Part shown: positions 25,542-48,699 of the stretch, in pieces
Layout: each line of letters starts with the position of its first letter
Numbering within the stretch: the stretch's first letter is position 1
Source of the DNA: Candidatus Omnitrophota bacterium
GTDB taxonomy: Bacteria; Omnitrophota; Gorgyraeia; Gygaellales; JAQTUX01
DNA: 64,000 nucleotides
Assembly (NCBI GenBank): GCA_028707125.1
Contig: JAQTUX010000001.1
Span: 13,639 to 77,638 of the forward strand
Reading direction: 5' to 3'
The notes under the pieces: model-generated
Database searches by the model: none
Told to the model about the DNA's origin: nothing
Seen by the model: only the letters and a program-made list of their open reading frames with translations
Position numbers and translations under genes: made by a program

Positions 25542-27002
25542 CTAAATATGCACCTCTCCTTTTGTCGCCCCTGCCTCCCATTTACCGACCCCCGCCATAA
25601 CGTCCTGGAAACACAACTTGGCGAGTATATCAAAATTGCTCTCCATGATACGGTTAATGCGCCCGGGTTTGGAGAAGAACTCGCGCATGCACCAAGAACC
25701 CAAACGGCCCAACTCTTCAATAGAAAGGTGGTCTGTGGGAATGACCGGATGAAGGAAATCCCAGGTGCTGAAGTCCACCTTCCTGGGGTCTATCCAGTTT
25801 TTCTTTAACGCTATCTTCCACATCGGAGAATTCGGAGCGGGGGTGACATATCCGACCCATAAGACATCCGGGTCAACTTCGTCGGTAAATTCATACCTTT
25901 GCTTGATTATCGCCTCCGTGTCATAGTCAAACCCCATCATGATATCGGCGACGATCGCGATATCGTTCTTGCGCAGTATCTCAATGGTCTTTTTGATCTG
26001 ATCTATCGTCGTGCCTTTAGCGATCCTCTTGAGCTCTTCCTGCGTGGTAACCTCTATCCCGAATACGCCCATAAACAGGCCCGTCTCTTTCATCAAAGGA
26101 AGGATAGATTCGCAATTCACCCAATCAACAGCCCTGCCTAAAGAGACCCATTTAATCGGTATGTTCTTTTTCTTCTTTAATTCACAGAACCTTTTTACGC
26201 GCGCGGGGTCAACATTAAAATTATCGTCCTGTATGACCACGACTTTAACGCCGTATTCTTTGTGCAAAACCTCCAGCTCTTCAATGACCCTCTCCGGGCT
26301 CTTGGCGCGCCATTTCAGGAAATCAGACGGCGAGCGCGGGTCGAACTGGTCCCATTCATAGCAGAAAGTACAGGCAGAAGGGCATCCCCGCGAAGTGATC
26401 ATATCGACAAACGGCTTCCAGTGGGTGTGGCCCACGTATTTATCCATGGGGAACAGATCGTATGCCGGAAGCGGCAGCTTATCCAGGTCAGCCATCAGCG
26501 CCTTATGCGGGCCCATTACGATCTTGCCGTTAATACGCGAGGTGACCCCGCCCACGCCTGACGGATCTTTTTTCTTATCTATAGCTTCGAGCAGATCCGC
26601 GAACGACTCCTCTTCACCCATAACCACAAAATCCACGGCGGAATTCTCCTCAAGCGTGGGAACAGGCATAGCCGAATACCATAATCCACCCAATATTATC
26701 TTTACATCGGGGAGCGCGGCCTTTATTCTTTGGGCTGCTTCTTTGAAGTGGCGTAAAACGCCGTAGCCGCCATAGCCATGTATCTGTTCGCCCATGACCA
26801 CAACATCGGGTTTCTTGGCCTTCACCTGTTCGATCAACTGGTCCATGGGTATTTCCAGGGCCCTGCCGTCAATAACCGCGACATCGCTGTATCCGCGCTC
26901 ACGCGCGAAACTGGCCCAATGCGCGTAGAGTTGATTCGGCGACCTGTGGATCCCGTGCGTTGCCCATGCCCCGACCTTCGGCATAACGAATAATATTTTC
27001 AT
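25542..27002 (-). CDS. B12-binding domain radical SAM protein (class B radical SAM, putative methyltransferase/tailoring enzyme)
   Basis: 486 aa with an N-terminal cobalamin-binding Rossmann domain (MKILFVMPKVGAW...VVVMGEQ) and a radical SAM CxxxCxxC motif (SRGCPSACTFC). Confidence 0.85.
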   Translation of the reverse strand: MKILFVMPKVGAWATHGIHRSPNQLYAHWASFARERGYSDVAVIDGRALEIPMDQLIEQVKAKKPDVVVMGEQIHGYGGYGVLRHFKEAAQRIKAALPDVKIILGGLWYSAMPVPTLEENSAVDFVVMGEEESFADLLEAIDKKKDPSGVGGVTSRINGKIVMGPHKALMADLDKLPLPAYDLFPMDKYVGHTHWKPFVDMITSRGCPSACTFCYEWDQFDPRSPSDFLKWRAKSPERVIEELEVLHKEYGVKVVVIQDDNFNVDPARVKRFCELKKKKNIPIKWVSLGRAVDWVNCESILPLMKETGLFMGVFGIEVTTQEELKRIAKGTTIDQIKKTIEILRKNDIAIVADIMMGFDYDTEAIIKQRYEFTDEVDPDVLWVGYVTPAPNSPMWKIALKKNWIDPRKVDFSTWDFLHPVIPTDHLSIEELGRLGSWCMREFFSKPGRINRIMESNFDILAKLCFQDVMAGVGKWEAGATKGEVHI

Positions 27003-27019
27003 ATTCTTGATCCTCCTCC

Positions 27020-27940
27020 CTATTTAAGGTTCAATATATCCGAAAAATTTTTGGACAAAACCTTCTCTTTTTCTTCTTCTTGTAATCCTGAATTTCGAAC
27101 AACATCAATAGAGCCCTGCAGGGCCCTGTTCGCCGGCCAGTCAGAGCCGAAAAGCATACGAGCGCTGCCTGACATTTCTAAGGCGCATTGTAAAACAGAG
27201 GCCGACTTGCAGCCGGATGTATCAATATAAATCCTGCTCAATATCTCAGAAGGCATCCCGCCTAAATCCTTAACGAGATTAATCCCGCGCAGCATATTGT
27301 AGGTCGTATCAAACCTCTCCTTGATAAACGGCAGCACCCCGCCAAAATGGGCAAATACGAATTTCAAGTCGGGGAATTTTGTAAATACCCCGGACATCAT
27401 AAGTTTACCCGCGCACATTGTCAGGTCAAAAACATATTCAATAACAGGGCCAAGCAGCGGGTCGTTAACGCGCTCTGAGCCGATGGGCTCTATGATCTGT
27501 GAATGCACAAAGATGGGTATCCTGTTCTTCCGGCAAAACTCATACACGCCAAAGAATATCTCCTCATCCAGATAAGCGCCGTTATAACTGGAGGCAAGAG
27601 ACAGGGCCTTCAGGCCCAGTTCCTTATACGCGCGCCTGCATTCCTTAAGCATCAACTCCGGCTCGCCGAAAGGCAGGATAAATGAGCCGATAAACCTGTC
27701 CGGATATTTCTTTACTATATCCGATACGCCGTTATTAAAAATAGCGGCTATACCCTGCCAGCCGCCTTCCGTATGCAGGTGCGCGTCCGTGGTAGGATAG
27801 GTAAGCAACGCCTTTTCTATGCCGGCTGCGCCCATCGCCTTGATCTGCGTCCCGATGTCTGACCAGGCAGGATGAAAGAACGAGGCGTTCTCTACTATCT
27901 CTTTCGGCAGCCAGTGCGAGTGGCCATCGTTTATGCTCAT
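27020..27940 (-). CDS. Amidohydrolase-2 family (TIM-barrel metal-dependent hydrolase/decarboxylase-like)
   Basis: 306 aa. The N-terminal HSHW metal-binding motif, internal VHSQ and C-terminal FGSDWP are typical of Amidohydro_2 (ACMSD-like decarboxylases/lactonases). Confidence 0.7.
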   Translation of the reverse strand: MSINDGHSHWLPKEIVENASFFHPAWSDIGTQIKAMGAAGIEKALLTYPTTDAHLHTEGGWQGIAAIFNNGVSDIVKKYPDRFIGSFILPFGEPELMLKECRRAYKELGLKALSLASSYNGAYLDEEIFFGVYEFCRKNRIPIFVHSQIIEPIGSERVNDPLLGPVIEYVFDLTMCAGKLMMSGVFTKFPDLKFVFAHFGGVLPFIKERFDTTYNMLRGINLVKDLGGMPSEILSRIYIDTSGCKSASVLQCALEMSGSARMLFGSDWPANRALQGSIDVVRNSGLQEEEKEKVLSKNFSDILNLK

Positions 27941-28719
27941 TTATCGGGATGCTCCTGCTTAAACGGTATCACCGGAGCGGTCCAGGGCGTCTGCTGGTTT
28001 ATCACCGCGATCTCCAGCGGACAGACGTTTGCCGGCACAGTCAGCGCAAACCTCACCGCGTTTTCTATGGCTTCGGTAGTCATAAGCCGCGAGGTATTGG
28101 CGGTCACCTCTTTCAGTTTACCGGTAAGGTCTGTGTCGGTCACGCCCGGCAGTATTGAGGTTATCTTGATGCCGTGGTCGCGCAGCTCCCAGAATAACCC
28201 CTTGGAGAACGCGCGCAGGCCTACCTTAAGCGAACTATAAACCAGAAAGTTCCTCGGCAAAGGGTCGCAGAGCGTTGAGCCGGATACCATGTTAATGATG
28301 GCGCCGGATTTATTTTTAATCATATCGTTGATAACTAAACGGATCATCCGTACATAACCTAAATAATTCGTGTGCACCAGGCGCTCAAAGTCCTCAAAGG
28401 GCTGTTTTTCAAAGGGGTATTGGCTGGAAACCCCGGCGTTGTTTATCAGGATATCTATCTTGCCGAATTTCTCTTTTGTCTTGTTCACCAGATTTTCCAG
28501 GTCCTCTAATTTAGTCACATCGCAAGGCACGGCCAGGACCTCTACCTTGTATTTCTTCGCCAGTTCCGCGGCGGTTTCCTTAAGCGGCCCCTCTCCGCGG
28601 GCGGCGAGGGCTAAATTAACGCCTAAACTTGCCGCGGTTGAGGCCAGTGCCTTACCTATGCCGCGGCTTGAGCCGGTAACTATGGCTGTCTTTCCTTTCA
28701 ACTCTGCGCTCATATTCAT
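27937..28719 (-). CDS. SDR-family oxidoreductase (3-ketoacyl-ACP/polyketide ketoreductase-like)
   Basis: It carries TGSSRGIG (TGxxxGIG), NNAG and the catalytic YxxxK (YSSLK). It overlaps its neighbours by 4 nt on both sides. Confidence 0.85.
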   Translation of the reverse strand: MNMSAELKGKTAIVTGSSRGIGKALASTAASLGVNLALAARGEGPLKETAAELAKKYKVEVLAVPCDVTKLEDLENLVNKTKEKFGKIDILINNAGVSSQYPFEKQPFEDFERLVHTNYLGYVRMIRLVINDMIKNKSGAIINMVSGSTLCDPLPRNFLVYSSLKVGLRAFSKGLFWELRDHGIKITSILPGVTDTDLTGKLKEVTANTSRLMTTEAIENAVRFALTVPANVCPLEIAVINQQTPWTAPVIPFKQEHPDK

Positions 28720-29162
28720 CTCCTGACTTTGGCTTCCTTTTCTATGACATCTTTAAATATCAGCAGGTTATCTTTGGAATGCTTATTAATAAAGCCCTCC
28801 ACCTGCTCATCGTTGAACTTCGCCTTATCGTCCATCTCAAAATGCTGTATCCAGGTCAGCAGGGTGCCTGCCTGCTTCGGCGTATAAAGCCAGACGATCT
28901 TCATATATTTAAAAGGGAATTTCGGCTCTTCTCTCTCGGAATAGGTAAAGTATTCATCTTTGAACAACAGCCGCCAGGACTGCCAGGACTTGCCTTCGTC
29001 ATCGGTAAGCCGGAAGGTGATCTTATTGCCTTCTCTTTTGAGCACCTCTGCCTTCTTGTATTCTCCTCCAAACAGCTCTGTCCAGCGTTCAATGTCGTTG
29101 GAGATCTCGAATATCCTGTCATAAGGCGCGTTGATCACGATCGAATTGCATGTATGCCCCAT
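28716..29162 (-). CDS. SRPBCC (Polyketide_cyc2/START-like) domain protein, putative polyketide cyclase/aromatase-like
   Basis: 148 aa with helix-grip-fold-like pattern (IVINAPYDRIFEISNDIERWTELF...), similar in size and organization to TcmN-type ARO/CYC domains. Confidence 0.55.
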   Translation of the reverse strand: MGHTCNSIVINAPYDRIFEISNDIERWTELFGGEYKKAEVLKREGNKITFRLTDDEGKSWQSWRLLFKDEYFTYSEREEPKFPFKYMKIVWLYTPKQAGTLLTWIQHFEMDDKAKFNDEQVEGFINKHSKDNLLIFKDVIEKEAKVRR

Positions 29163-29179
29163 AATTGTCCTCCTATGTT

Positions 29180-29977
29180 TTATAATATCGCTACGACGCG
29201 CGCCCAGGCAGCGCCGGCGTCTTTGATCTTAACCGGAAAACACGCCACCTTAAAACCCGACGCCGGCAATTCATCCAAATTGGCCAGCCGCTCAATGTGC
29301 GCGTATTCCCGTTTTCTGCCGAAAAAGTGCGCCGGCCATAAATGCCTCGCGTCATGGGTGCGCGTAAAATCAGCCATCATGAATTTATACGGCCGGTCAA
29401 AGCCCAAAGTGTCGATGCCCACTATCTTCACTCCCGCGTCCAATAAATACCCTATGGCCGCGGGATCTACTCCGGGATAATTCGTCAAATATTCTTTTGA
29501 GCCGAAAAATTTATCCGCCCCCGTATGCAGCAATACGATATCGCCGGACTTAAGTTGATAATTTATCTTTTCCAGGGCAAAACGCGCGTCGTTCTTGGAT
29601 ATGACCTCTCCCGGTTTCTTGTCGGTGAAATCCAGGACCACCCCGTCGGAAAGGCACCATTCCAAAGGAAGCTCATTTATTGTCTTTGACGGCCTTCCCT
29701 GCGACTGGCTGCCGTAATGGAACGAGTAATCAATGTGCGTGCCGATATGCACCGGAGAATGCACTGTCTCAAGCGAGAGGAATTCTCCATCAGGCAGGTC
29801 TGATGGCTTTATGACCCTTTTGCCGAAAAGAAAATCCAGACGGCCCTTAAGCGTCCTTTTCATCATTACCCAGTTAAGATGGCGCACCCCGGGCTTATGC
29901 CCCAGCCGCTCGATCCAGAAAGGATGGACCTCGGGAGCGCTGTCGTCAATGGATATGCTTAAATCTATTATGTTCAT
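29180..29977 (-). CDS. Cyclase-family protein (pfam04199; kynurenine formamidase/polyketide cyclase-like)
   Basis: It has the HxGTHxDxxxH metal-binding motif (VHSPVHIGTHIDYSFHY) typical of the putative-cyclase family. Confidence 0.75.
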   Translation of the reverse strand: MNIIDLSISIDDSAPEVHPFWIERLGHKPGVRHLNWVMMKRTLKGRLDFLFGKRVIKPSDLPDGEFLSLETVHSPVHIGTHIDYSFHYGSQSQGRPSKTINELPLEWCLSDGVVLDFTDKKPGEVISKNDARFALEKINYQLKSGDIVLLHTGADKFFGSKEYLTNYPGVDPAAIGYLLDAGVKIVGIDTLGFDRPYKFMMADFTRTHDARHLWPAHFFGRKREYAHIERLANLDELPASGFKVACFPVKIKDAGAAWARVVAIL

Positions 29978-29980
29978 TGC

Positions 29981-30214
29981 CTATGCCTTTTTTGAGCCAA
30001 TTATGGCGGCGATGTCCTTGATGGACTGGAATTTGCTGATCTCCTTCTCATCCAATTTTACACCAAACTCCTTCTCTAAAGCAATACGTATCTCCACCAT
30101 TTCGGTTGAGTCAACTCCGATGCCTTCGTAAAGTTTCGCGCCTGTGTCAATATTGGCGTTCCTGAGCCCCAGCAATTTTACTATCATGTCTTTTACTTGC
30201 GTCTCAATCTCCAT
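29981..30214 (-). CDS. Acyl carrier protein
   Basis: 77 aa. GVDSTEMVEIRIALEKEFGV has the phosphopantetheine-attachment Ser in a DSx motif at the start of helix II. Confidence 0.8.
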   Translation of the reverse strand: MEIETQVKDMIVKLLGLRNANIDTGAKLYEGIGVDSTEMVEIRIALEKEFGVKLDEKEISKFQSIKDIAAIIGSKKA

Positions 30215-30224
30215 AGATACCCTC

Positions 30225-31460
30225 CTATGCCTTCTTTAATATCAATGCCGAGTTGATGCCGCCCCTGCCGCGGGAAATAACCAGGGCGTTATTGATCTCC
30301 CGGGCAACGCCTTTATCTCTGATAAAATTCAGGTCCGCTCCCTTAACCGGCTCCTTCAGGTTTACCATCGGAGGAAGCATGCTGTTTTCCATGGCCAGTA
30401 TGGTGATTATAATGTCAACCGCGCCGGAGGCGCCCAGAAGATTACCCAGCATGGTCTTTGGCGCGCTTACCGGAATGGTTGCCGCTTTCTCGGCGAATAC
30501 ATCCTTTATGGCATTGATCTCGCTTGTGTCGCCGTCAACAGTAGCCGCTCCGTCAAGGCAAATGTAATCTATTTCCCGCGGCTTGATGCCGGCGCCTTGA
30601 AGCGCTATCTTTATGGCGCGCGCAAGCTGCCTGCCTGAGGCGTCCGCCTTTATCCTGTCTACCCCGTCGCAGGTCGCCCCGTATCCGGACACATACGCGC
30701 TGATATGCGCTCCTCTTTTTCTGGCGCGCTCTTCGCTTTCCATGATCATAATGCCGGCGCCCTCGCCTATGACAAAACCGTCCCGCTTTTCATCAAACGG
30801 CCTGTATGCCGCCTGCGGATCGGCGTTATTCGCGCTTAAGGCGCCGTAGCTGTTGCAGCATAACAGCGCGTAAGGCGTAACCGGCGCCTCCATTCCTCCG
30901 GCGAGGATAAAATCCAGCCGGTCTTTTTCCAGCGTCTTTTTGGCATAGCCGATGGCCATGAGGGAGGAGGCGCGGTCAGAGACGACCGTCTTGGAAAACC
31001 CCTTTATGCCGTAATAGATGGAAACCTGCCCCTGCGGCGCGGCAGGGAACCAGGCAGATGCCATATACGGGCTGACGCCTTCGCGGCCCTCCATATACAG
31101 ATCGCGCAGCTCTGTTTCGGCGTAAAGCCAGCCGCCGATGGCGTTGCCCATGAATATCCCTATATTATTGGGGTTTTCCTTTTGCACGTCTATCTTCGCG
31201 TCCTGAAGCGCCTGTTCTGAGGCGATCAGGGCAAGATGGGAAAAGGTGTCTATTTTTTTCAGCAGGCGTTCCGATAGATGAGAATAGGCATCCAGGTCTT
31301 CGATCTGCCCGGCGATACGCGAGGGATATTTTGAGGCGTCAAACCTGGTGATGGCGCGCACGAATGAACGGCCGTTCTTGATATTCGCCCAGAAAGGCCG
31401 CTTGCCCGTGCCTGCGGGCGCGACAATACCTATGCCTGTAACCACTATCCTCTTCATCAT
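30225..31460 (-). CDS. Ketosynthase beta / chain-length-factor-like subunit (KS fold lacking catalytic Cys and His residues)
   Basis: 411 aa with a thiolase/KAS fold. At the active-site position the sequence is VVSDRASSLMAIGYA instead of TGC(T/S)SGLDA. The HGT and GH motifs are replaced by DGAAT and GN. The start overlaps the upstream KS gene by 4 nt. Confidence 0.8.
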   Translation of the reverse strand: MMKRIVVTGIGIVAPAGTGKRPFWANIKNGRSFVRAITRFDASKYPSRIAGQIEDLDAYSHLSERLLKKIDTFSHLALIASEQALQDAKIDVQKENPNNIGIFMGNAIGGWLYAETELRDLYMEGREGVSPYMASAWFPAAPQGQVSIYYGIKGFSKTVVSDRASSLMAIGYAKKTLEKDRLDFILAGGMEAPVTPYALLCCNSYGALSANNADPQAAYRPFDEKRDGFVIGEGAGIMIMESEERARKRGAHISAYVSGYGATCDGVDRIKADASGRQLARAIKIALQGAGIKPREIDYICLDGAATVDGDTSEINAIKDVFAEKAATIPVSAPKTMLGNLLGASGAVDIIITILAMENSMLPPMVNLKEPVKGADLNFIRDKGVAREINNALVISRGRGGINSALILKKA

Positions 31461-32719
31461 TTACTCCATCTTTTTAACACAAGCGAAGAATGTATGCCGG
31501 AAAAGCCGCTTGCGGTTTTTAAAATAGTATCCACCCTTTTTTCCATCGCCTTATTGGGAATATAATTCAGGTCGCACTGCGGGTCCGGCTCCTCCTGATT
31601 TATCGTCGGAGGCAGGATATTCTTTTCAAATATCTGCGCGCATACCGTCAACTCCACGGCGTTGGCCGCCGCCAGAGGATGCCCGATCATCGATTTGAAC
31701 GAACTGATGGGAAGTTTATACGCGTAATCGCCGAATATCGTCTTGTAGGCTCCGGTCTCAAAGATATCGTTCATCCTTGTGGATGAGCCGTGGGCGTTTA
31801 TGTAGTCGATCTCCCGCGGCTTGACCTTCGCGTCCTTCAGCGCCATCTTTATGCAAGTAGACATCGCCTCCCCGTCTTGGGGCAGGTCGGTCATATGAAA
31901 GGCGTTGCAGCTTGAGCCGAATCCCGTGATCTCGCAGTATATATGTGCCCCGCGGTTTTTGGCGTGTTCCAGTTCTTCCAGTATCAAAACCCCGGCGCCC
32001 TCTGAAAGCACGAACCCGTCGCGCTTGTTATCAAACGGCCGCGACGCCTTTTCCGGCTGGTCATTGCGGTTGGACAATACGCTGACCACGTCAAAGGCCC
32101 CGAACGTAATAGGGGTAAGCGGCGCCTCTGCCGCGCCGGCGATCAAGACATCCGCTTCGCCGTCCCTTATCGCCTCAAAGGCAAAACCCACCGCGTCCGT
32201 GCCGGCGGTGCAGCCGGTAGAAAGGGTTTCACACAAGCCGTTCAGATGATAGCGCGCCGATATCTCGCTTGAAGGCGTATTGAACATCGCCGCGTCGTAG
32301 AGAACGTCGCTTGCCTTGGCAGGGTCGATCGGCTCTTTGCCGTGGTTTGTCACGCGCAGGAACTCCTCTTCCATATATTTGGTGCCGCAGATGGCGTTTG
32401 CCAGAACCACGCCTATCTGCTCAAGATTTTCTTTCTTAAAGTCCAGTTCTGAATCCTCAACCGCCATTTTGGCGCAGGTTACGCCGAACTGCACGTAGCG
32501 GTCCATCCTCGCCGCCTCCTGCCTGGTCAACCCCAGCTTTACGGGGTCAAATTCGTAGCAATATGCCGCGATCCGGGAATGGAACATTGAGACGTCAAAC
32601 ATGTCCACCTTTCTCACGGCGGACTTTCCCCGCGACATACCCTGCCAGACCCCGTCCTTGCCTATGCCGTTGGGTGATATGCAGCCGATGCCTGTAACAA
32701 CTACGCGCCTATTCTTCAT
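31457..32719 (-). CDS. Beta-ketoacyl synthase, type II PKS KS-alpha-like (active)
   Basis: 420 aa. The active-site LSTGCTAGTDAVGFA resembles the type II PKS KS-alpha TGCTSGLDA motif. His-His (NAHGSST ... KSMIGHPLAAA) is conserved. Confidence 0.85.
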   Translation of the reverse strand: MKNRRVVVTGIGCISPNGIGKDGVWQGMSRGKSAVRKVDMFDVSMFHSRIAAYCYEFDPVKLGLTRQEAARMDRYVQFGVTCAKMAVEDSELDFKKENLEQIGVVLANAICGTKYMEEEFLRVTNHGKEPIDPAKASDVLYDAAMFNTPSSEISARYHLNGLCETLSTGCTAGTDAVGFAFEAIRDGEADVLIAGAAEAPLTPITFGAFDVVSVLSNRNDQPEKASRPFDNKRDGFVLSEGAGVLILEELEHAKNRGAHIYCEITGFGSSCNAFHMTDLPQDGEAMSTCIKMALKDAKVKPREIDYINAHGSSTRMNDIFETGAYKTIFGDYAYKLPISSFKSMIGHPLAAANAVELTVCAQIFEKNILPPTINQEEPDPQCDLNYIPNKAMEKRVDTILKTASGFSGIHSSLVLKRWSK

Positions 32720-32725
32720 GTCTGC

Positions 32726-33310
32726 CTACTCCACTCTGGTTGCCCTGAACCTGACATTGCCTCCGTCAGGGCAGGTAATGGTGTTCAAAGAGTTCTCATC
32801 TTCCATAAAGGAAAATTTTGCCCCGAAATTAAGCGCGAACAAAACGGGAAACAGGGTATGGAACGCCGCCCCGCAGAAATTCGGAATGGTGCGCAGGCCC
32901 GTGGTCTCCCATTTATCTCCCGCCTTATAACCATAGAAGCATTTGCCGGTGACCTCCTCCACGCTGATTATCATTTTCCTGGGGCTGGGGCCTTTGTGAT
33001 CGGGATTCTTAGGCACAACCTCAACCTTGCCCGCGTCATCAAGGACCTCGGTAAAAAACTCCAGTTTCCCGCCGTCGGGGCAGGTCGTATGCATAGAACG
33101 TTGGTTCTGCTCAAAAGGGAATTTAGCGCCAAAAGTCAAGGCGTAGCAGGGCGCGAACACCGAATGCGCCATCCCCAGGCAAAAATGCTTGGGCGGATGC
33201 GTGAAATCATCAAGTATCAGCTGGTCGCCGACCTTATAATTATGGTAACAATACCCGCCTTGTTTGGTAACGGTCAATCTTAACTTGGGAAACTTTACCC
33301 TGCTTTCCAT
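32726..33310 (-). CDS. Tandem-duplicated Cys-rich protein of unknown function (2 x ~95-aa repeat ending in TCPDGG)
   Basis: 194 aa. Repeat 1 (GGYCYHNYKVGD...FCLGMAHSVFAPCYALTFGAKFPF...TCPDGGKLEF) and repeat 2 (GKCFYGYKAGD...FCGAAFHTLFPVLFALNFGAKFSF...TCPDGGNVRF) share conserved Cys/His positions. Confidence 0.4.
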   Translation of the reverse strand: MESRVKFPKLRLTVTKQGGYCYHNYKVGDQLILDDFTHPPKHFCLGMAHSVFAPCYALTFGAKFPFEQNQRSMHTTCPDGGKLEFFTEVLDDAGKVEVVPKNPDHKGPSPRKMIISVEEVTGKCFYGYKAGDKWETTGLRTIPNFCGAAFHTLFPVLFALNFGAKFSFMEDENSLNTITCPDGGNVRFRATRVE

Positions 33311-34296
33311 ATCTTCTCCTTGATCTGCTCTTTGGTGAGAAATCCGCCTGTCTTCTCTACCCTATGCACAAGTTCAACTAATTTTTTATTCAGCGGCGCG
33401 GGAACGCCGGTTTTCTCTGCTACGTCCGCTATCTGGCCGTTGATATAGTCAATTTCAGACGGCCTGCCCCGTTTAATGCTCTGCAATATTGAGCCATGGA
33501 GCGGCTCACTGCTCAATTTGGTCATAATGCCGGAAAATATCGCGGCTGCCTTATCAACAGGCATAAACGCGAGGCCGCGCGCCTTGTCAATATCAAAACC
33601 AGGCAGCGCGCCAGGTTTTATGCCTGCCCTGTCAACTGCCTCAAACGCTTCTTTCTGAAGCGCCAGCGCGAGCTTACACATCTCAATATCGGAAAACACC
33701 TCCTGCATACTCAGGCCGCAGAGCGCGGGAACGCAATTGTTGAGATTCACGAATAATTTTGTCCACTTCTGCGCCACAATATCGCTGCTCTGAACAATCT
33801 CAAAAGCAGAAGACAGCTCATCGGTTATTGTCTGTACTATTGTGCCGTTGGCGCCATAGGGTTTACCAACTATCCACTTGCCTTCAAAATTATGCACGAT
33901 CGCGCCGGCTTTAAGATATGTCGCTCCGAACATAACTATGCTTGATATGATGTTATCCCGGCCGATGAACCCCGAAATAATTTCGTCCGCCTTTACGCCG
34001 TTTTGCGTAGTCAGAACGGTTGTGTCTCTGAAATAATCTTTGTTCTGGCTATATGCCTCTTCTATATCCTGCGTCTTTGTGGCAAGGATGATCAGGTCCG
34101 CGCGGCTGCCAAGGCGTGTGCCTGCATCAAGATCGATCCGTAGGTCTCCGCGCGCGCCGCTTACCTTCAGGCCGCCATTCTTGATCGCCTCAACCTGGTC
34201 AGCCCGTCCGATCAAACAGACGTCTTTGCCCTTCTGCTTAAGATAGGCGGCAACCAGCCCGCCGATCGCTCCTGCCCCTATTACGGCTATTTTCAT
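33295..34296 (-). CDS. Ketopantoate reductase (ApbA/PanE)-family NAD(P)-dependent oxidoreductase
   Basis: N-terminal Rossmann motif MKIAVIGAGAIGGLVAAYL and a C-terminal ApbA_C-like helical domain. Confidence 0.75.
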   Translation of the reverse strand: MKIAVIGAGAIGGLVAAYLKQKGKDVCLIGRADQVEAIKNGGLKVSGARGDLRIDLDAGTRLGSRADLIILATKTQDIEEAYSQNKDYFRDTTVLTTQNGVKADEIISGFIGRDNIISSIVMFGATYLKAGAIVHNFEGKWIVGKPYGANGTIVQTITDELSSAFEIVQSSDIVAQKWTKLFVNLNNCVPALCGLSMQEVFSDIEMCKLALALQKEAFEAVDRAGIKPGALPGFDIDKARGLAFMPVDKAAAIFSGIMTKLSSEPLHGSILQSIKRGRPSEIDYINGQIADVAEKTGVPAPLNKKLVELVHRVEKTGGFLTKEQIKEKIWKAG

Positions 34297-34769
34297 CTCT
34301 TCTCGCTATACGCCTTAAGATTATCTAAAATGTTTTCCAGATTCCTGTCGTGTAATCCGCGAAAGACAAGTTTCCATAAGATCTTATTGGCCCATCCCCT
34401 GACCTTAAACAGCATCTCGTATTCCACCTTTACCTTATGGCAGCACATCTGCTTTAAAGAAACTGTTTCCATGCCCTCTAAAAATCCGTCTTTAAATTTG
34501 CGCGTTATGCTTTCGCCTTGCTTGATCTCAGAGACCGCTGCTTTCCACGACGGGCCGAACGGAAGCGCTACCTTCTGTATATACTCGCTGCCTTCTCGAA
34601 CAGGGCCGTCCGTGGTTTTGCTGAACCTCATCAAGGAATTCTCAGGCCACCATCCGGCCTCTCCCCACCTGACTATTTCAAGGAACAGCCCTTCAATCCC
34701 CGCCTCAATTATCCTGGCGTGATAATTGGAATAATATTTATTTGCCGAAACCATATTTAGCGTAATCAA
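34293..34769 (-). CDS. SRPBCC/Polyketide_cyc2-like domain protein
   Basis: 158 aa with a helix-grip-like pattern; weaker match than 28716..29162. Confidence 0.45.
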   Translation of the reverse strand: MITLNMVSANKYYSNYHARIIEAGIEGLFLEIVRWGEAGWWPENSLMRFSKTTDGPVREGSEYIQKVALPFGPSWKAAVSEIKQGESITRKFKDGFLEGMETVSLKQMCCHKVKVEYEMLFKVRGWANKILWKLVFRGLHDRNLENILDNLKAYSEKR

Positions 34770-35007
34770 TGCCTACCGCATCAAGTATCTTCTTCATCGG
34801 GGCGGCAAACGCCGCCGGCACGCCCATAAACATCGCCTTGACCACATCAACCTCCTCTATCAGCGCGCTGCCGCGCTCCGTAGCGTAAAGTTGCGCGCTT
34901 TCCCTGATGGATCCTTCGGCAATGCTCCTGTGGAACAGGGATATCTTATTGATGATCTGCCTGAATTTATCTTCTATGCCTTTTTCCCAAACCAGCTTAT
35001 CAGCCAT
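34738..35007 (-). CDS. Small PCP_red-like domain protein (hypothetical)
   Basis: 89 aa. LVWEKGIEDKFRQIINKISLFHRSIAEGSIRESAQLYATERGSALIEEVDVVKAM resembles the stand-alone C-terminal domain of protochlorophyllide reductase subunit B (PCP_red). Confidence 0.35.
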   Translation of the reverse strand: MADKLVWEKGIEDKFRQIINKISLFHRSIAEGSIRESAQLYATERGSALIEEVDVVKAMFMGVPAAFAAPMKKILDAVGIDYAKYGFGK

Positions 35008-35016
35008 AAACCCTCC

Positions 35017-36453
35017 TTAAACGCTGAACCAATTTGCCACCAAAGGCCTGCCTGACAGATCCGTATTAATATGCTTCAGGTTCGTATATTCCAACAGCCC
35101 CTCCCTGCCCAGCTCTTTTCCGAAGCCGCTCTGCTTGAACCCGCCGTAAGGCGCCTGAGGATAAAACATGCCGTATGTATTAATCCAGACCGTGCCGGCG
35201 TTGATCTGACCGGCTAATCTTTGCGCCTTTGTTAAATCCCTGGCCCATATGCTGGCAGCCAAACCAAAAGCAGAGTTGTTAGCCAGGCCCGCTGCTTCAT
35301 CAAGAGAAGAAAACGTGGATACGCCTGTAACCGGGCCGAACACCTCTTCCTGGAATATGTCCATTTCCGGCCTGACATCGGCAAACACCGTCGGCTCAAA
35401 GAAAAATCCCTGTTTCAGATCCGCGGGTATCTTGCCTCCGCAAACAAGATGGGCTCCCTGTTTTTCAGCCCGCTCAACGAAGGACATAACTTTTTTTCTC
35501 TGTTCCTTGCTTATCAACGGCCCCATCTGGGTTTCAGGATCAAGGCCGTCGCCTAATTTTAACGCCTTTGCCTTGCTCACAAAGGCATCTAAGAATTTAT
35601 CCGCGATCTTCTTATCAATTAAAAGCCGCGACATTGCCGTGCACATCTGCCCCTGATTTAAAAATATACCGCAAAGCAGGCCGCTGGAAACGGTTTCTAT
35701 ATCACAATCATCCAATACCACTGCCGCTGACTTTCCCCCTAACTCCATAACCAGTTTCTTGGTATTGGCTGAAGCCAATTTCATTATTTCTTTGCCAACC
35801 TCATTGCTGCCGGTAAAAGAGATCATGTCCACAGCTTTATGCGCGGCCAATGCCGCGCCGACAGTGCTGCCCGCGCCGGTAACGATGTTAAAGACGCCTT
35901 TAGGCAGGCCTGCCGCCTCTATAATACGGCCGAGTTCCAGCGCGCTTAAAGGCGTTAAGCTCGCCGGCTTAAGCACTATAGTATTGCCCGCGGCAAGGGC
36001 GAAGGCCGTCTTCCAGCAGGCGATCAACAACGGATAATTCCAGGGGACGATCAAACCAACTACGCCTATTGGCTGGCGCGTAAGCGCGCTTCTTGCCTCT
36101 GCCGGCAGTTTTATTTCTTCATCCTTAAGCCATTCCTGTGATAAATTGGCAGCGTCCTCAAACACCTGCGCTGCCGACGGGATGTCCATAAAGGTGGTTT
36201 CCTTTATCGGCTTGCCGGTATTCAATGACTCAATCTCAATTAACTTGGAGGCATTTTCTCTTATGCCTTCCGCGATCTTGAAAAGACAGGCGGCGCGCTC
36301 CTTTGGAGACATCTTCGGCCAGGGCCCGTTATCAAAGGCATTTCTTGCCGATGAAACAGCCCGCTCCAGGTCATCGAGCGCGGCTTCCGGCACCTGCGCG
36401 ATCACTTTTTCGTTACAAGGATTAATTATTTCTCTTTTTTTATTAACGTTCAT
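35017..36453 (-). CDS. NAD(P)-dependent aldehyde dehydrogenase
   Basis: 478 aa with ELGGKSAAVV (catalytic Glu region), a catalytic Cys in GQMCTA and GxGxxG/FTGS motifs. Confidence 0.9.
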   Translation of the reverse strand: MNVNKKREIINPCNEKVIAQVPEAALDDLERAVSSARNAFDNGPWPKMSPKERAACLFKIAEGIRENASKLIEIESLNTGKPIKETTFMDIPSAAQVFEDAANLSQEWLKDEEIKLPAEARSALTRQPIGVVGLIVPWNYPLLIACWKTAFALAAGNTIVLKPASLTPLSALELGRIIEAAGLPKGVFNIVTGAGSTVGAALAAHKAVDMISFTGSNEVGKEIMKLASANTKKLVMELGGKSAAVVLDDCDIETVSSGLLCGIFLNQGQMCTAMSRLLIDKKIADKFLDAFVSKAKALKLGDGLDPETQMGPLISKEQRKKVMSFVERAEKQGAHLVCGGKIPADLKQGFFFEPTVFADVRPEMDIFQEEVFGPVTGVSTFSSLDEAAGLANNSAFGLAASIWARDLTKAQRLAGQINAGTVWINTYGMFYPQAPYGGFKQSGFGKELGREGLLEYTNLKHINTDLSGRPLVANWFSV

Positions 36454-40363: not shown

Positions 40364-41113
40364 CTATTTCCCCTCTAACTTCTTCACAGTTGCCAGGGCG
40401 ATCTCGATCAGCTTTGATTCTGCCATATAATAAAGCGGGTTCATAAAGCCCATTTCGCCGGTAATCACGTTGTCGCTGACCGATAAAATTGAGCCGGCCT
40501 TGATCTTATATGTCTGCGCAATCGTTAAAAGCGCGGATGAGACCATATCCACGGCAATCGCGCCCTGCTTTCTCTTTGCCTCAACGATCTCTCTGGTCTC
40601 CCGCAGGAGCGCGTCGGTTGTCCAGCAGGTGCCGCGATGGATATTGACACCCATGCCTTTGGCGACTTCGTATAAAGTATCAGCGATCTTCTTATCGGCA
40701 AGCGTCTCAAAACCCTCATCCACATAATACGGCGTCACCCCGTCCCCGCGCAGCACCTTATCCACCACGATCAAATCCCCTACTTTGATATTCTCGTCAA
40801 GCGCTCCGCAGGTGCCGATACGGATAATGTTCTGTATTTCGGCGTTGCACATTACCTCGGAGGTGATCGCCGTATCCGCTGAAAACCTTCCGCCGTTTAT
40901 GGCGCTCACCCTTATGCCGTCAATCGCGCCGGTATACATCGTATATTCCATAAAGGAAAAATTCCTTATCGGGCTTTCTAATTTCTTTATCAGGACCTCT
41001 AACCTGTCCCTGGGCCCGGGCACGATCGCGTATTTACCCACATCCTGCGGCCGTAACTGCACCATCTGCGTCAAATCCCTGCCCGTCAAATGAACCTCTT
41101 TTTGCATTTGCAT
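40364..41113 (-). CDS. PNP/UDP phosphorylase family 1 protein (purine/uridine or MTA phosphorylase-like)
   Basis: 249 aa. RIGTCGALDENIKVGDLIV and VDMVSSAL are consistent with DeoD/Udp/MtnP-type nucleoside phosphorylases. Confidence 0.75.
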   Translation of the reverse strand: MQMQKEVHLTGRDLTQMVQLRPQDVGKYAIVPGPRDRLEVLIKKLESPIRNFSFMEYTMYTGAIDGIRVSAINGGRFSADTAITSEVMCNAEIQNIIRIGTCGALDENIKVGDLIVVDKVLRGDGVTPYYVDEGFETLADKKIADTLYEVAKGMGVNIHRGTCWTTDALLRETREIVEAKRKQGAIAVDMVSSALLTIAQTYKIKAGSILSVSDNVITGEMGFMNPLYYMAESKLIEIALATVKKLEGK

Positions 41114-41123: not shown

Positions 41124-42560
41124 TTATTTCCTCAATGCTTCCTTATCCACTTTGCCCGTTCTATTCTTAGGCAGCGAGTCCACGAAATTTATATGATGCG
41201 GGATCTTGAAGTGCGCCAGATGCTGGCGGGAGAACTGCCTGATATCCGCCTCTTTTAATTCCGCCCCGTCCTTTGCCACAATGAACGCCGCCACTGCCTC
41301 TCCCCTTAATTCATCGGCCACGCCTATCACAGCCGCCTCTTTAACCAGCGGATGCCGCATAAGCGCTGCTTCAACTTCAGGCGAATAAACGATCTCGCCG
41401 CTTACCTTGATCATCTCTTTCTTGCGGCCGATTATATAATATAGACCTTCCTCATCCTGCCTGACAATATCCCCGGTCTTAAACCATCCGTCTTCGCTAA
41501 GGACCTCGCGGGTCAGCTGCGGCTCTTTATAATATTCCTTCATCACCGCGTCGCCCCTGATCCAAAGCTCGCCATCCACGATCTTTGCCTCTATTTCAAA
41601 ATCTAATTTTCCTATACTGGATAATTTATTGATATCCTTGGGCGAATAGGCGTTAGGAGCGGCGGTCTCGGTCAGGCCCCAGCCGTTAAGCAGACAGGCG
41701 TTAGGGTATGCCTTGTGAAACCTGTTTAACAATTCCGGCGAGGAAGGCGCGCCGAAGACAACGGCATATTTCAAATGAGAAAAATCAAATTTATCGTATT
41801 CCTTTAACGATAAGATCGCCACATACATCGCCGGGACGATGCAAAAGATGGTTACTTTATGCTTTTCCGTATTCCTCAGGAACTCCAAAGGATGGAATCT
41901 TTCCATCAACACCAGGGTTGAGCCAAAATACAGCATAAACAGGGCGTAATCAAAGCCGCCAAGATGCGAGAACGGCACTCCGCCGCATAAATATATGTCA
42001 TCGCAAGAGGCGCCCAAAAAATGCTCTATTGTCTTTACCGGGCTGTCAAAATGCTTATGCGTCAAGACCACTCCCTTGGGATGGCCGGTTGAGCCGGAGG
42101 TATAAAAAATGGAAGAGATATCTTGTTCATTGATTTCTATATCTGGCCTCGCGGAACTTGCCCCTATGTTATCGTTAAGTATGACGACCTGTTTCAGGCG
42201 GAGGCAGCGGGTTTGGATGGATTGCGCGTCTATGTCTTTTTTGGGCTGGGCGATCAGGAGTTTCGCGTCGCTGTGATTGATGAAATTAACGATCTCTTCC
42301 TGCGTTAACATAAAATCCAGGGGCACGCACACCGCGCCTGCGCTGAATACGGCAAAATAACTGTAGATATACTGGGGGATATTGGGAAGGAACACGGCCA
42401 CCTTATCCCCTTTTTGAATGCCCTGCTCAATGAGGAAGTTGGCGAGCTTAAAGGAGTTATCGCGCAAGTCCTTGAAGCTGACAGAGCTGTCGCGGAAGAT
42501 AAGCGCCGGCTTATCAGGCCGCTCTTTTGCCTGCTTTTCCAGTAATACGGTAATATTCAT
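41124..42560 (-). CDS. AMP-dependent synthetase/ligase (acyl-CoA synthetase family)
   Basis: 478 aa with the AMP-binding motif YTSGSTGHPKGVVLTH, GWGLTE and the C-terminal K of the ANL superfamily. Confidence 0.85.
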   Translation of the reverse strand: MNITVLLEKQAKERPDKPALIFRDSSVSFKDLRDNSFKLANFLIEQGIQKGDKVAVFLPNIPQYIYSYFAVFSAGAVCVPLDFMLTQEEIVNFINHSDAKLLIAQPKKDIDAQSIQTRCLRLKQVVILNDNIGASSARPDIEINEQDISSIFYTSGSTGHPKGVVLTHKHFDSPVKTIEHFLGASCDDIYLCGGVPFSHLGGFDYALFMLYFGSTLVLMERFHPLEFLRNTEKHKVTIFCIVPAMYVAILSLKEYDKFDFSHLKYAVVFGAPSSPELLNRFHKAYPNACLLNGWGLTETAAPNAYSPKDINKLSSIGKLDFEIEAKIVDGELWIRGDAVMKEYYKEPQLTREVLSEDGWFKTGDIVRQDEEGLYYIIGRKKEMIKVSGEIVYSPEVEAALMRHPLVKEAAVIGVADELRGEAVAAFIVAKDGAELKEADIRQFSRQHLAHFKIPHHINFVDSLPKNRTGKVDKEALRK

Positions 42561-42668
42561 AATATAGTAAAATTTTACTAATTAAATTGTATTATATAAA
42601 ATATCCCCTGAATGTCAAGGTTTTTTTAGAGATAAAACTGATTGGCTTAATTGAAGATACGGCGTGAA

Positions 42669-42965
42669 TTAAGTGGCGTCTTCCAAAGGCAGGAGGAATG
42701 CCTTAACACCTTCGCGGCCCAACTCTTTACGCAGCTGCCTGATGCAGTCAAGTAGCTGTTTAGCCTGCTGATCTTCACAGGCGATATACAAAAGATCGTT
42801 CTTCCCCGGCCAGATATCAGTCCCAAAATGCGTGCCGGAACTGCTGCCGCTGCCAAAAACACCGGTTACTTTAGTATAATTCTTCAAGCCGCAGCCCTCC
42901 AAGGTTTCCATTACCTCGGCATCTATGGCTTCGTTGTAAATGACCATCACCATTTTCCGGCTCAC
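42669..42965 (-). CDS. PII-like (GlnB-superfamily, DUF3240-like) small protein associated with RND efflux operon
   Basis: 98 aa with a beta-alpha-beta pattern (MVMVIYNEAIDAEVMETLEGCGLKNYTKV). Its start overlaps the RND pump stop by 4 nt. Confidence 0.45.
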   Translation of the reverse strand: MSRKMVMVIYNEAIDAEVMETLEGCGLKNYTKVTGVFGSGSSSGTHFGTDIWPGKNDLLYIACEDQQAKQLLDCIRQLRKELGREGVKAFLLPLEDAT

Positions 42966-45900: not shown

Positions 45901-46075
45901 CGTCTTCGGGGCTGGCTCCGGAATAAGAAGACACCACCGTGATCACCGGCGGCTCGATCTCCGGCATCATATCTATGCCTAACCTTGACATACTGTAAAA
46001 GGCAACGACGAGGATCGCCGAAAAGATCATCAAATTTGTTACCGGCCTTTTTACGCCGAACTCAGGAAGCAACAT
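42962..46075 (-). CDS. RND-family efflux transporter permease (AcrB/CzcA family)
   Basis: 1037 aa with 12 TM helices and two large periplasmic loops, typical of RND pumps. Confidence 0.9.
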   Translation of the reverse strand: MLLPEFGVKRPVTNLMIFSAILVVAFYSMSRLGIDMMPEIEPPVITVVSSYSGASPEDVEIKVTEPLENQLSTTPGLEKMTSNSLEGLSLISIKFKWGTNIDEASNDIRDRIDLAKRFLPDIPDEMDNPFIYKFNTANIPIIFTGITAEQSYAGLYDLIDKRVGDSLRQLAGVGTVQLFGGLERQINIWINRQRLEGYGFSVLDIQNALKQENVTQPMGGIKTGLSDYLLRLPGEFASPEEINLVILGKRDGKSVYLKDVAKVEDSFKEVTMNVRINRHPGLMMMVQKQTGTNTVEVAARIKNKLKEFQKTLPADVKMFLIFDTSQDIINSLQNLKSALWLAIILVILVVWFFLRQFFGSLIIALTLPFSLLIAFIYLFLSGKTINVIGLSSLAIACGMVVDNAIVVVDNVYRSLEKGRRPQEAAIFGASEMFLSIAASTFTTVVVFLPMLFITGVVGIMFGELAMIVTVTLLASLFTAATFSPMLCSKLLRLRKQSGALAKLYDFSERLFKSWEDFYGRCLAWCLGHKKLVIFGFLAAFITSLFSTRFIGNEFIPEEDSGDVRITVQLALGTRFEETDKVAGRIEDILEKSVPEAKFFYARAGTTTGSGRAMGAGDSGPHVVVCGAKLVPKTERRRSVFEVGQKLREEIWRIPGVLKVDISTGNPLGRMITGAGGKAIQLEIIGHSFEDTNALAAKIKGVMEKVPGAVDTSISRDISRPELRIEVDREKAAALGLNMNTVASSVKTFIEGSTATKYREKGETYDIYVRLEESSRSKIEDIENLSLVSLVTGKQIRLSNFARVYETAGPINIERQNRERVVRVECNTYKRSAGKVIEDVKKELRKLILPADIMLNFGGEAEEQKKAFRDLTFLLALGLVLVYMIMAAQFESLLDPFIVMFAVPFTFTGVFLAFLVTGTTLSVVTFLGIIMLMGIVVNNAIVLISYINILRARGLSMLQAVTRGGRDRLRPVLMTTITTLAGLMPLALSRGEGSETWQPLGITMIGGLTVSTLVTMLFVPTLYAIFEARIRRNGGHKK

Positions 46076-46078
46076 ATT

Positions 46079-48240: not shown

Positions 48241-48241
48241 T

Positions 48242-48691
48242 TTATTTTTCGCCGGCCTTCAAGTGGCTGTGTATCTTGGTCAGGATCTCAAGGTACTTGT
48301 CGCGGTCTGAAACGCTCAGATTGCCGAACGCCTCCATTATCATCCTTCGCCTTGCCTCGTTTATCCTTACAATAACGCCCTTGCCCTTCGGAGTAACGCT
48401 GACTTTGACTACGCGCCTGTCGTCGGGCAGGCTCTCGCGCGCGACAAGGCCTTCTCTTACCAGTTTATCTACAAGCCCTGTGGCCCCTGCCATGCTTACG
48501 GACAGGTCCTTGGCCAGTTCGCTCATGCGCATTGATTCCTCTTCTTTCAGGATATCAAGTATGATCGCCTGCGCGAAAGAGATATTCGCCGCTGCCAGCC
48601 ATTTTCTGTGCCTCTTCAGGAACTGGCGCATGACAGCCGGCAGGAGCCGGCAGACACCGTGGGAAAATTGGACGAGATCGTTGTCAGACAT
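48242..48691 (-). CDS. MarR-family transcriptional regulator
   Basis: 149 aa with the winged-HTH SMRMSELAKDLSVSMAGATGLVDKLVREGLVARESLPDDRRVVKV. Confidence 0.85.
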   Translation of the reverse strand: MSDNDLVQFSHGVCRLLPAVMRQFLKRHRKWLAAANISFAQAIILDILKEEESMRMSELAKDLSVSMAGATGLVDKLVREGLVARESLPDDRRVVKVSVTPKGKGVIVRINEARRRMIMEAFGNLSVSDRDKYLEILTKIHSHLKAGEK

Positions 48692-48699
48692 ATTTAATC

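Follow-up and report, generated by a model that had tools for sequence, protein, structure and literature searches.

The question raised by this locus is what a compact operon with two ketosynthase (KS) genes makes in an uncultivated bacterium: an aromatic polyketide, a lipid or a cofactor. The operon lies within 64,000 nucleotides of DNA from a Candidatus Omnitrophota bacterium (GenBank assembly GCA_028707125.1, contig JAQTUX010000001.1, positions 13,639 to 77,638 of the forward strand), and this whole stretch is called the window. An earlier note on the same DNA had read KS-alpha, a KS-beta resembling a chain-length factor (CLF), an acyl carrier protein (ACP) and cyclases as an aromatic type II polyketide synthase (PKS), a reading that the KS tree, the search scores and the family calls support. 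The region is probably an aromatic type II PKS gene cluster. Judged from gene content, its most likely function is the O2-independent synthesis of an exported small polycyclic phenol or quinone, and the functional steps beyond family membership are inferred. The very different, probably uncultivated lineage that had been suspected is that of a Candidatus Omnitrophota metagenome-assembled genome (MAG), and KS-alpha is 100% identical to an Omnitrophica MAG protein at NCBI.

The operon is composed of 13 open reading frames (ORFs) on the minus strand across 25542-36453, the same coordinates as those given by the earlier note. Overlaps of 4 nucleotides follow from the ORF coordinates at the junctions of u158 (a 158-residue protein) with the ApbA-like reductase, KS-alpha with KS-beta, the SRPBCC protein with the SDR oxidoreductase, and the latter with the amidohydrolase. 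At the junctions of u89 (an 89-residue protein) with u158 and of the ApbA-like reductase with the TIGR04076 protein the overlaps are 16-17 nucleotides, and the remaining junctions are gaps of 3-17 nucleotides. The compact, co-directional operon of the earlier description was therefore borne out. The overlapping genes suggest translational coupling. The calls of an SDR, an amidohydrolase-2, a B12 radical SAM enzyme, an ApbA-like protein and an aldehyde dehydrogenase (ALDH) were all matched by Pfam. An Rfam scan placed no family near the operon and thus no riboswitch was seen there, and promoter and terminator scans of the region did not rise above shuffled expectation.

The KS pair carries most of the argument. 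KS-alpha has an intact Cys/His/His triad at the aligned columns and an STGCTAGTD motif that is found, in the alignment, as in the KS-alpha of Streptomyces, Laceyella and Clostridium botulinum. KS-beta has Arg/Asp/Asn where the catalytic Cys/His/His would stand, in agreement with the earlier description of an active KS whose stop overlaps the start of a Cys-less partner. Among solved structures KS-alpha matches AntD (6smo_B, 381 bits) and the Act KS (1tqy_A, 374 bits) best, with no FabF above 344 bits and with the ishigamide KS (6kxd) and an aryl-polyene KS (7f27) far below the Act and Ant scores. Both proteins miss the 493.75-bit cutoff of the FabF equivalog TIGR03150 (KS-alpha 462.8, KS-beta 403.1). 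When KS-alpha was compared against 1.84 billion cluster representatives, none was more than 53% identical. The closest named representatives belong to Laceyella/Thermoactinomyces, Clostridium botulinum and Streptomyces, where the source annotation is minimal-PKS KS-alpha or TcmK-like, and identity to FabF-like representatives is 40-43%. A neighbour-joining tree (73 sequences, 413 columns, 100 bootstraps) that included PKS loci and the fabF and fabB products of E. coli places Omnitrophota KS-beta in one clade with the CLFs of Streptomyces, C. botulinum, Laceyella and two metagenomic PKS loci, with a bootstrap of 100. A CLF profile search likewise ranks the Act CLF (1tqy_B) first. The earlier note had named as adverse a phylogeny with both KS genes inside the FabF/FabB clades together with failing cyclase and SRPBCC calls; what was found is this CLF clade, FabF scores below cutoff, and a cyclase and an SRPBCC protein that pass Pfam. 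At the CLF gate the alignment reads GGWLY in Omnitrophota, GGFDF in Act and GGNAF in a TcmL-like CLF. The published gate numbering (F109, T112, F116) does not map confidently onto the Act CLF chain index, so the bulky Trp and Tyr where the Act CLF has Phe and Phe are just a weak hint of a short chain, possibly C16 or less. Within the 64-kb window, AccA is the only separate gene of fatty-acid synthesis found.

The gene following KS-beta encodes the ACP, with the GVDST motif that agrees with the DST serine noted before. The next gene encodes the predicted PF04199 cyclase, whose HIGTHIDYSFH motif and Pfam score uphold the earlier assignment. It is 46% identical to the cyclase of the Laceyella type II PKS locus and 40% to that of another such locus, L082. 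Of the two SRPBCC proteins that had been proposed, the monodomain aromatase/cyclase (ARO/CYC) passes the Pfam thresholds, and the second, u158, is assigned by predicted fold only. The matches to WhiE ORFVI and TcmN (E 1e-25 to 1e-23) span the entire ARO/CYC, and nine TcmN residues, W28, F32, Y35, W63, S67, R69, R82, M91 and W95, are identical in it in a HMMER alignment to 2rez. Tyr35 and Arg69 are reportedly the catalytic pair of TcmN, as Ames and colleagues are said to have described in 2008. Identity of the ARO/CYC to its counterparts in four other PKS loci is 36-46%. The SDR following has generic matches in the PDB (FabG, clavaldehyde dehydrogenase), and its ketoreductase role is inferred. 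The amidohydrolase matches ACMSD and the 5-carboxyvanillate (LigW), gamma-resorcylate, 2,3-dihydroxybenzoate and salicylate decarboxylases in the PDB, and it is 37% identical to the Amidohydro_2 protein of a PKS locus on a metagenome contig, L081. Since its solved relatives are non-oxidative decarboxylases, the enzyme may decarboxylate an aromatic polyketide acid at its terminal carboxylate. No dehydratase domain was found by Pfam in any of the 13 operon proteins.

Relatives were searched in one genome per GTDB species, where 400 stretches encode close relatives of KS-alpha; up to about 400 species genomes may carry the operon. GTDB R232 contains about 705 Omnitrophota species representatives (bioRxiv 10.64898/2026.06.07.730766). 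The locus comparisons rest on the best 80 of the 400 stretches, whose KS-alpha proteins are 71-76% identical. Most of these 80 records are titled Omnitrophota or Omnitrophica, with a few automated titles of Planctomycetales type or simply "bacterium", and they include the complete genome of Ca. Velamenicoccus archaeovorus, an archaeon-lysing epibiont. The core operon is syntenic in 80 of the 80 loci, as far as the contigs reach, a conservation on which the earlier note was silent. The order kept is u89, ApbA, tandem TIGR04076, KS-alpha, KS-beta, (B12 radical SAM), ACP, cyclase, ARO/CYC, (MFS), SDR, (CBM11-like), (u138), Amidohydro_2, where u138 is a 138-residue protein. The radical SAM gene stands directly after KS-beta in most loci and at the 3' end of the operon in the window; in loci of the V. 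archaeovorus type there are two copies, one ahead of u89, the two genes overlapping at their ends, and one as the final gene of the operon.

Median full-length identity to the window protein is 86% for the SDR and the B12 radical SAM enzyme, 78% for the ARO/CYC, 74% for KS-alpha, 69% for KS-beta, 65% for the TIGR04076 protein, 61% for the cyclase, about 50% for Amidohydro_2, ApbA and ACP, and 42% for u89. In the 33 genomes with a full-length AccA the medians are 71% for AccA, 73.5% for KS-alpha, 87% for the SDR, 86% for the radical SAM enzyme and 78% for the ARO/CYC. These identities, at or above that of AccA, indicate that the PKS core is at least as constrained as an enzyme of primary metabolism. 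The operon appears to be inherited vertically in Omnitrophota under purifying selection.

The last gene of the operon encodes the cobalamin-dependent radical SAM enzyme. BchE and HpnJ are non-methylating cobalamin radical SAM enzymes, and the best NCBIfam model for the operon enzyme is that of BchE (TIGR02026, 207 bits over residues 3-431), below the equivalog cutoff of 481.35. The HpnJ model reaches 149 bits, also below cutoff, and the ladderane-type TIGR04072 77.3 bits against a cutoff of 360. BchE converts a methylene to a ketone anaerobically in vitro, with oxygen from water (PMC13598231), and in another report a HemN-like radical SAM enzyme C-methylates an anthraquinone in a type II PKS pathway (PMC9714029). 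An O2-independent oxidation or a C-methylation is a plausible step for the operon enzyme.

The small protein u89 may be connected with this enzyme, and its gene overlaps the end of the B12 radical SAM gene in V. archaeovorus. When 68 u89 sequences were made into a profile, it aligned along its whole length with the last 80 or so residues of two C. botulinum enzymes from the type II PKS locus: at E 6e-14 with a Peptidase_U32/DUF2621 protein and at E 3e-10 with a HemN-like radical SAM enzyme. These C-terminal fusions suggest that u89 is the free-standing form of a domain for anaerobic tailoring, and u89 is probably an accessory domain for an anaerobic tailoring enzyme; it may deliver substrate to the radical SAM enzyme. 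O2-independent hydroxylases, among them UbiU and UbiV, belong to the U32 family. The occurrence of a u89-like domain on both U32 and HemN-like enzymes points to a shared adaptor for anaerobic polyketide tailoring. Weak similarity is also seen between u89 and a 64-residue PCP_red protein of the L081 locus. Pfam at E<=10 gave nothing usable for u89, u158, u138 or u143.

The Cys-rich tandem-repeat protein, which had been described as without recognizable family, belongs to TIGR04076, matching in two stretches with 82.6 bits against a cutoff of 33; the family itself is uncharacterised. Its predicted structure consists of two beta-beta-alpha-beta-beta units (mean predicted confidence, pLDDT, 87.9), and no informative structural neighbours of the model were found. 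A Cys3-His set is invariant in both repeats (C21/C44/H49/C77 and C124/C146/H151/C180), and the first repeat has two additional invariant His. The ApbA-like reductase scores 183.9 bits with TIGR00745, above the cutoff of 141, and its gene overlaps the TIGR04076 gene by 16 nucleotides. One database protein (P0339) is a fusion of ApbA_C to TIGR04076. A reasonable guess from these arrangements is that the two proteins form a metal- or cluster-dependent redox pair. The SRPBCC fold of u158 is revealed by structure prediction alone, u158 lies outside the conserved core of the operon, and hhalign comparison of the u158, u138 and u143 families with the operon SRPBCC family gave no signal.

The first gene of the operon, for ALDH, is probably part of a neighbouring salvage module and not a polyketide tailoring gene. 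Wherever it is detected, ALDH follows genes for an MtnA-like isomerase and a class II aldolase, and this trio stays linked to the PKS, upstream of it in the window and in the relatives L040, L051, L063 and L080 and downstream in L014. A phosphorylase, an isomerase and a class II aldolase reportedly form a dihydroxyacetone phosphate (DHAP) shunt that disposes of 5'-deoxyadenosine and 5'-methylthioadenosine (MTA), as North and colleagues are said to have described in 2020. The constancy of the trio and the logic of this shunt lead to ALDH being read as oxidising the aldehyde released by the aldolase. The MtnA-like protein passes TIGR00524 (209.8 bits, cutoff 185.85) and falls below the equivalog TIGR00512 (235.9 bits, cutoff 279). 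Linkage of its gene to the operon was seen in about 36 loci, against about 15 for the aldolase gene; the 10-kb flank limits both counts. The nucleoside phosphorylase, whose best models are uridine and purine nucleoside phosphorylases, each below cutoff, is a putative first step of 5'-deoxyadenosine/MTA salvage, and the putative reason for the linkage is by-product removal for the radical SAM step. In the window genome a toxin-antitoxin insertion separates the phosphorylase gene from MtnA, splitting the putative salvage module. The fusion of the aldolase to SCP2, a sterol-carrier or lipid-binding domain, seems unusual and could mean a hydrophobic substrate instead of a sugar phosphate.

The accessory enzymes had been described as corresponding to no characterized pathway. 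They do remain uncharacterised, but B12 radical SAM enzymes, Amidohydro_2 and small PCP_red/u89-like proteins are also encoded in other type II PKS loci, including a clostridial one, so the set is not unique, and ALDH is probably a salvage gene.

The co-directional array continues upstream past 36453, up to about 50240, and the block at 41124..50240 is syntenic in many relatives. The coordinates of the operon genes, of this block and of genes of related loci are given in Table 1. PadR and MarR regulators belong to families associated with phenolic ligands, and together with the export pumps they fit an exported aromatic product; the nearby AccA fits malonyl-CoA supply. At its end the AcrB gene overlaps the P-II-like ORF, which is kept beside AcrB in 14 related loci.

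Table 1. Genes of the operon, its upstream flank and related loci (window positions unless a locus is named)
Feature	Position	Strand	Family, motif or occurrence
Aldehyde dehydrogenase (ALDH)	35017..36453	-	PF00171, E 2.5e-175
u89, small conserved protein, 89 aa, no family	34738..35007	-	present in 67 loci
u158, divergent SRPBCC-fold protein, 158 aa (153 aa from NCBI start)	34293..34769	-	predicted fold
ApbA/PanE-family NAD(P)H reductase	33295..34296	-	PF02558 + PF08546; TIGR00745
Tandem TIGR04076 protein, 194 aa	32726..33310	-	NCBIfam TIGR04076
KS-alpha, active ketosynthase, 420 aa	31457..32719	-	PF00109 + PF02801
KS-beta, CLF-type subunit, 411 aa	30225..31460	-	PF00109 + PF02801
ACP, 77 aa	29981..30214	-	PF00550, E 7e-10; GVDST serine motif
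PF04199 cyclase, ActIV/OxyN type by context	29180..29977	-	PF04199, E 1.9e-29; HIGTHIDYSFH
Monodomain TcmN/WhiE-type ARO/CYC (SRPBCC), 148 aa	28716..29162	-	PF03364, E 2e-8; PF10604, E 8.8e-7
Classical SDR oxidoreductase	27937..28719	-	PF00106, E 3e-51
Amidohydro_2 protein, decarboxylase-like	27020..27940	-	PF04909
Cobalamin-dependent radical SAM enzyme	25542..27002	-	PF02310 + PF04055
Class II aldolase with C-terminal SCP2 domain	36488-37483	-	PF00596 + PF02036
MtnA-like isomerase	37480-38421	-	PF01008; TIGR00524
HepT-like RNase + MNT nucleotidyltransferase toxin-antitoxin pair, plus 323-aa familyless ORF	38443-39089, 39239-40210	-	
Nucleoside phosphorylase PNP_UDP_1	40364..41113	-	84% identical to PNP_UDP_1 adjoining MtnA in L001; in 40 loci
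AMP-dependent ligase	41124-42560	-	Pfam; upstream of operon in 8 loci
P-II-like ORF, 98 aa	42669-42965	-	Pfam
AcrB	42962-46075	-	Pfam; upstream of operon in 15 related loci
HlyD	46079-46948	-	Pfam
Outer-membrane factor	46948-48240	-	Pfam
MarR	48242-48691	-	Pfam
PadR	48781-49293	-	Pfam; upstream of operon in 38 related loci
AccA	49290-50240	-	Pfam; upstream of operon in 35 related loci
MFS transporter, CBM11-like protein, 138-aa protein	L001 15468-16592, 17319-18014, 18039-18455		
Extra in-operon genes of a relative	L051 14951-16078, 16861-17544		
u89-domain carriers in C. botulinum type II PKS locus	L085 3859-5292 and 2196-3845		Peptidase_U32-family protein, HemN-like radical SAM enzyme

Other features of the window lie apart from the operon. 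Downstream, three GH57 genes and a DUF4912 gene (18610-24158, minus strand), which the earlier note had also listed, look like a glycogen or alpha-glucan module unrelated to it. A fluoride riboswitch (14078-14142, minus), a 6S RNA (631-789, minus) and two tRNAs (11813-11885, minus; 12483-12565, plus) are not near the operon, and an IS200-like Y1 transposase gene is located at 53866-54354 (plus). At 56977-60865 (plus) an MFS transporter gene is followed by an AMP-binding/ACP/acyltransferase fusion, resembling the LplT/Aas lysophospholipid recycling pair.

A pathway can be proposed from these assignments. KS-alpha/CLF and the ACP would build a short poly-beta-keto chain from malonyl units, which a host malonyl transferase would load, with AccA encoded nearby. 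The TcmN-like enzyme would close and aromatise the first ring, and the PF04199 cyclase would close a further ring to give a bi- or tricyclic phenol. A carbonyl could be reduced by the SDR, by the ApbA-like reductase or by both, with the Cys3-His TIGR04076 protein as a possible partner of the ApbA-like reductase, and a terminal aromatic carboxylate would be removed by the Amidohydro_2 enzyme. A late O2-independent step may be carried out by the BchE/HpnJ-like B12 radical SAM enzyme with u89, either a C-methylation or, as in BchE, the oxidation of a methylene to a ketone. The 5'-deoxyadenosine/MTA by-product would be disposed of by the phosphorylase, the MtnA-like isomerase, the class II aldolase and ALDH. 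The product, a phenol or quinone, would then leave the cell through the RND pump, and in most relatives also through an MFS pump, with PadR and MarR as regulators. Its role might be that of a toxin, of a redox shuttle or of a cofactor resembling a quinone.

Several observations weigh against an aromatic type II PKS. In the tree KS-alpha joins the other KS-alpha proteins, away from the FabF clade of E. coli, but at a node with a bootstrap of only 15%, and in a single-sequence search KS-beta matches FabF (301 bits) above the Act CLF (270 bits). In actinomycetes, a CLF Gln at the position of the KS Cys is a hallmark used for decarboxylative priming, and this position is Arg in the 3 of 3 Omnitrophota KS-beta proteins examined. 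The position is also Arg in Laceyella and L082, Met in C. botulinum and Ser in L081, so the Gln is not universal outside actinomycetes. The only solved structures that match the PF04199 protein are hydrolases, isatin hydrolase and kynurenine formamidase. The SDR was considered as an Act-type C-9 ketoreductase and this was rejected, the Act ketoreductase being missing from its top 60 PDB matches. The window operon is without the MFS and CBM11-like genes that are present in most relatives; the u138 gene, which most relatives also carry, is absent from it as well. Near-universal retention with housekeeping-level conservation is atypical of secondary metabolism and may point to a primary-like role.

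This last point bears most directly on a possible, though unlikely, alternative in which the enzymes of the operon produce a quasi-essential redox molecule for the cell itself, a quinone or cofactor head-group formed without O2, and not a secreted metabolite. The core genes are kept in every related locus and conserved as AccA is or more so, in reduced genomes. Ring oxygens would be available from polyketide carbonyls without O2, a keto group could come from water via the BchE-like enzyme, and classical quinone pathways are patchy or incomplete in the phylum, as described by Seymour et al. (PMC10066038). A prenyltransferase or membrane-anchoring enzyme is, however, absent in and near the operon, the linked MFS/RND exporters and PadR/MarR regulators suit export, and many Omnitrophota are described as fermentative or acetogenic.

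Far less probable is that the KS pair is a specialised fatty-acid or lipid synthase of a ladderane-like type, or the condensing enzyme of housekeeping fatty-acid synthesis. NCBI and JGI do name both proteins beta-ketoacyl-ACP synthase (FabF-like), the best solved matches of KS-beta are FabF, a B12 radical SAM gene stands beside the KS genes as in proposed ladderane clusters, and ladderane-type antiSMASH calls, which may refer to this operon or to other loci, exist in Omnitrophota MAGs (PMC9902471). Yet KS-beta lacks all three catalytic residues and falls in the CLF clade, both KS proteins and the radical SAM enzyme stay under the respective FabF and ladderane-type cutoffs, FabZ, FabA and an enoyl reductase are absent from the operon, and a TcmN-type aromatase with aligned catalytic residues has no fatty-acid role. 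Slightly more improbable again is a polyene or aryl-polyene type II PKS making a reduced unsaturated chain, even though aryl polyene clusters are the commonest Gram-negative KS/CLF systems and the SDR could act as a ketoreductase. The operon is without a hot-dog dehydratase, a second ACP and LolA-like, acyltransferase or MMPL genes, the polyene KS structures score low, and aromatic-type cyclases of two kinds are present. The "polyene-like" product that the earlier note had allowed is thus not supported, with no dehydratase in the operon and partner cyclases of aromatic type. The slightest chance is given to a mosaic assembled by accident, for example an aromatic catabolic set (decarboxylase, ALDH, formamidase-like cyclase) beside fatty-acid genes. 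Catabolic enzymes do occur in the PF04199 and Amidohydro_2 families, and ALDH and the salvage genes do look like a separate module, but in 80 loci the genes have kept together although the radical SAM gene and the salvage module have been rearranged, the gene overlaps suggest coupled translation, and accessory homologues are found in other type II PKS loci.

The reading as an aromatic type II PKS is therefore retained, and a more speculative extension of it, on which only a small probability is placed, is that the lineage depends on a fully O2-independent aromatic polyketide pathway. The BchE-like radical SAM enzyme and a u89 adaptor would replace oxygenases in this pathway, for example in an anthrone-to-quinone conversion with oxygen from water, and the product would be a lineage-defining predation effector or quinone-like redox carrier and not a dispensable antibiotic.

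The general view of type II PKSs is of secondary-metabolite systems that occur sporadically, are shuffled horizontally and belong mostly to actinomycetes. In this uncultivated phylum such a system is kept, as conserved as housekeeping genes, in all related genomes that were examined, in hosts that are ultra-small, genome-reduced and probably predatory anaerobes, and the aromatic metabolite may be central to Omnitrophota biology. For enzymology, the locus offers an anaerobic tailoring toolkit of a BchE-like radical SAM enzyme, u89, a non-oxidative decarboxylase and the TIGR04076/ApbA pair, and it shows a biosynthetic operon in physical linkage with genes that may dispose of radical SAM by-products. 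The system is also tractable: expression in E. coli is reported to be easier for KS/CLF pairs from outside the actinomycetes, and Ca. V. archaeovorus dominates an existing enrichment culture with proteome data. A KS-CLF catalogue (PMC10132072) names Omnitrophica once among 14 phyla, with no analysis, and the supplements consulted do not list it. Polyketides are unmentioned in two large Omnitrophota genomics papers and in a paper on a V. archaeovorus enrichment culture.

Among known systems, the dendrubin (den), AQ-256 (ant) and pyxidicycline clusters likewise combine KS-CLF-ACP with TcmN-type and OxyN-type (PF04199) cyclases, a set described as the "ancestral" architecture of non-actinomycete type II PKSs (PMC7693217). 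Their hosts are Gram-negative and/or anaerobic, as here, and AntD of the AQ-256 cluster is the best solved match of the Omnitrophota KS-alpha. These clusters contain a TcmN-TcmN pair, whereas Omnitrophota have a single monodomain TcmN, add the tandem TIGR04076 protein, the ApbA-like reductase, u89, the B12 radical SAM enzyme and the decarboxylase, and have Arg at the CLF active-site position. The Omnitrophota operon is also conserved across relatives, while the other three are sporadic. In comparison with actinomycete PKSs, KS-alpha is 45% identical to a cluster of Streptomyces KS-alpha proteins annotated TcmK-like, WhiE ORFVI and TcmN align with the ARO/CYC over full length, and the CLF profile puts the Act CLF first; the Omnitrophota operon differs in having no ABM or anthrone oxygenases and no FAD monooxygenases, in the change of the CLF Gln to Arg, and in an SDR that is not recognisably of the Act ketoreductase type. 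Both KS proteins share the thiolase-fold family with FabF and FabB, but form a heterodimer-type pair with a catalytically dead partner, set among an aromatase and cyclases. BchE, the Mg-protoporphyrin IX monomethyl ester cyclase, is the best model for the radical SAM enzyme and carries out O2-independent oxidation chemistry, although the operon enzyme scores 207 bits under a cutoff of 481 and the tetrapyrrole context is absent.

The clostrubin-type systems, with the C. botulinum locus (L085), share an anaerobic host with the Omnitrophota operon. In C. botulinum a B12 radical SAM gene adjoins KS-alpha, accompanied by an MFS pump, a monodomain SRPBCC cyclase and the u89 domain. There the u89-like domain is fused to the Peptidase_U32-family and HemN-like proteins, whereas it is free-standing in Omnitrophota, the radical SAM enzymes are just about 20% identical, and TIGR04076, ApbA and Amidohydro_2, all present in Omnitrophota, were not called in the C. 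botulinum locus. The L081 metagenome contig encodes a larger PKS locus with a KS-alpha 46% identical to that of the window. Its gene set comprises KS/CLF, Amidohydro_2, a B12 radical SAM enzyme, the 64-residue PCP_red protein, Polyketide_cyc2 and two ACPs, with extra Cys-less KS paralogues and one KS-KS fusion. This accessory set indicates that the anaerobic toolkit is not limited to Omnitrophota loci. The system is of a known kind, a type II PKS, and is distinct by its anaerobic accessory toolkit, its Arg-type CLF, its putative coupling to salvage and its conservation.

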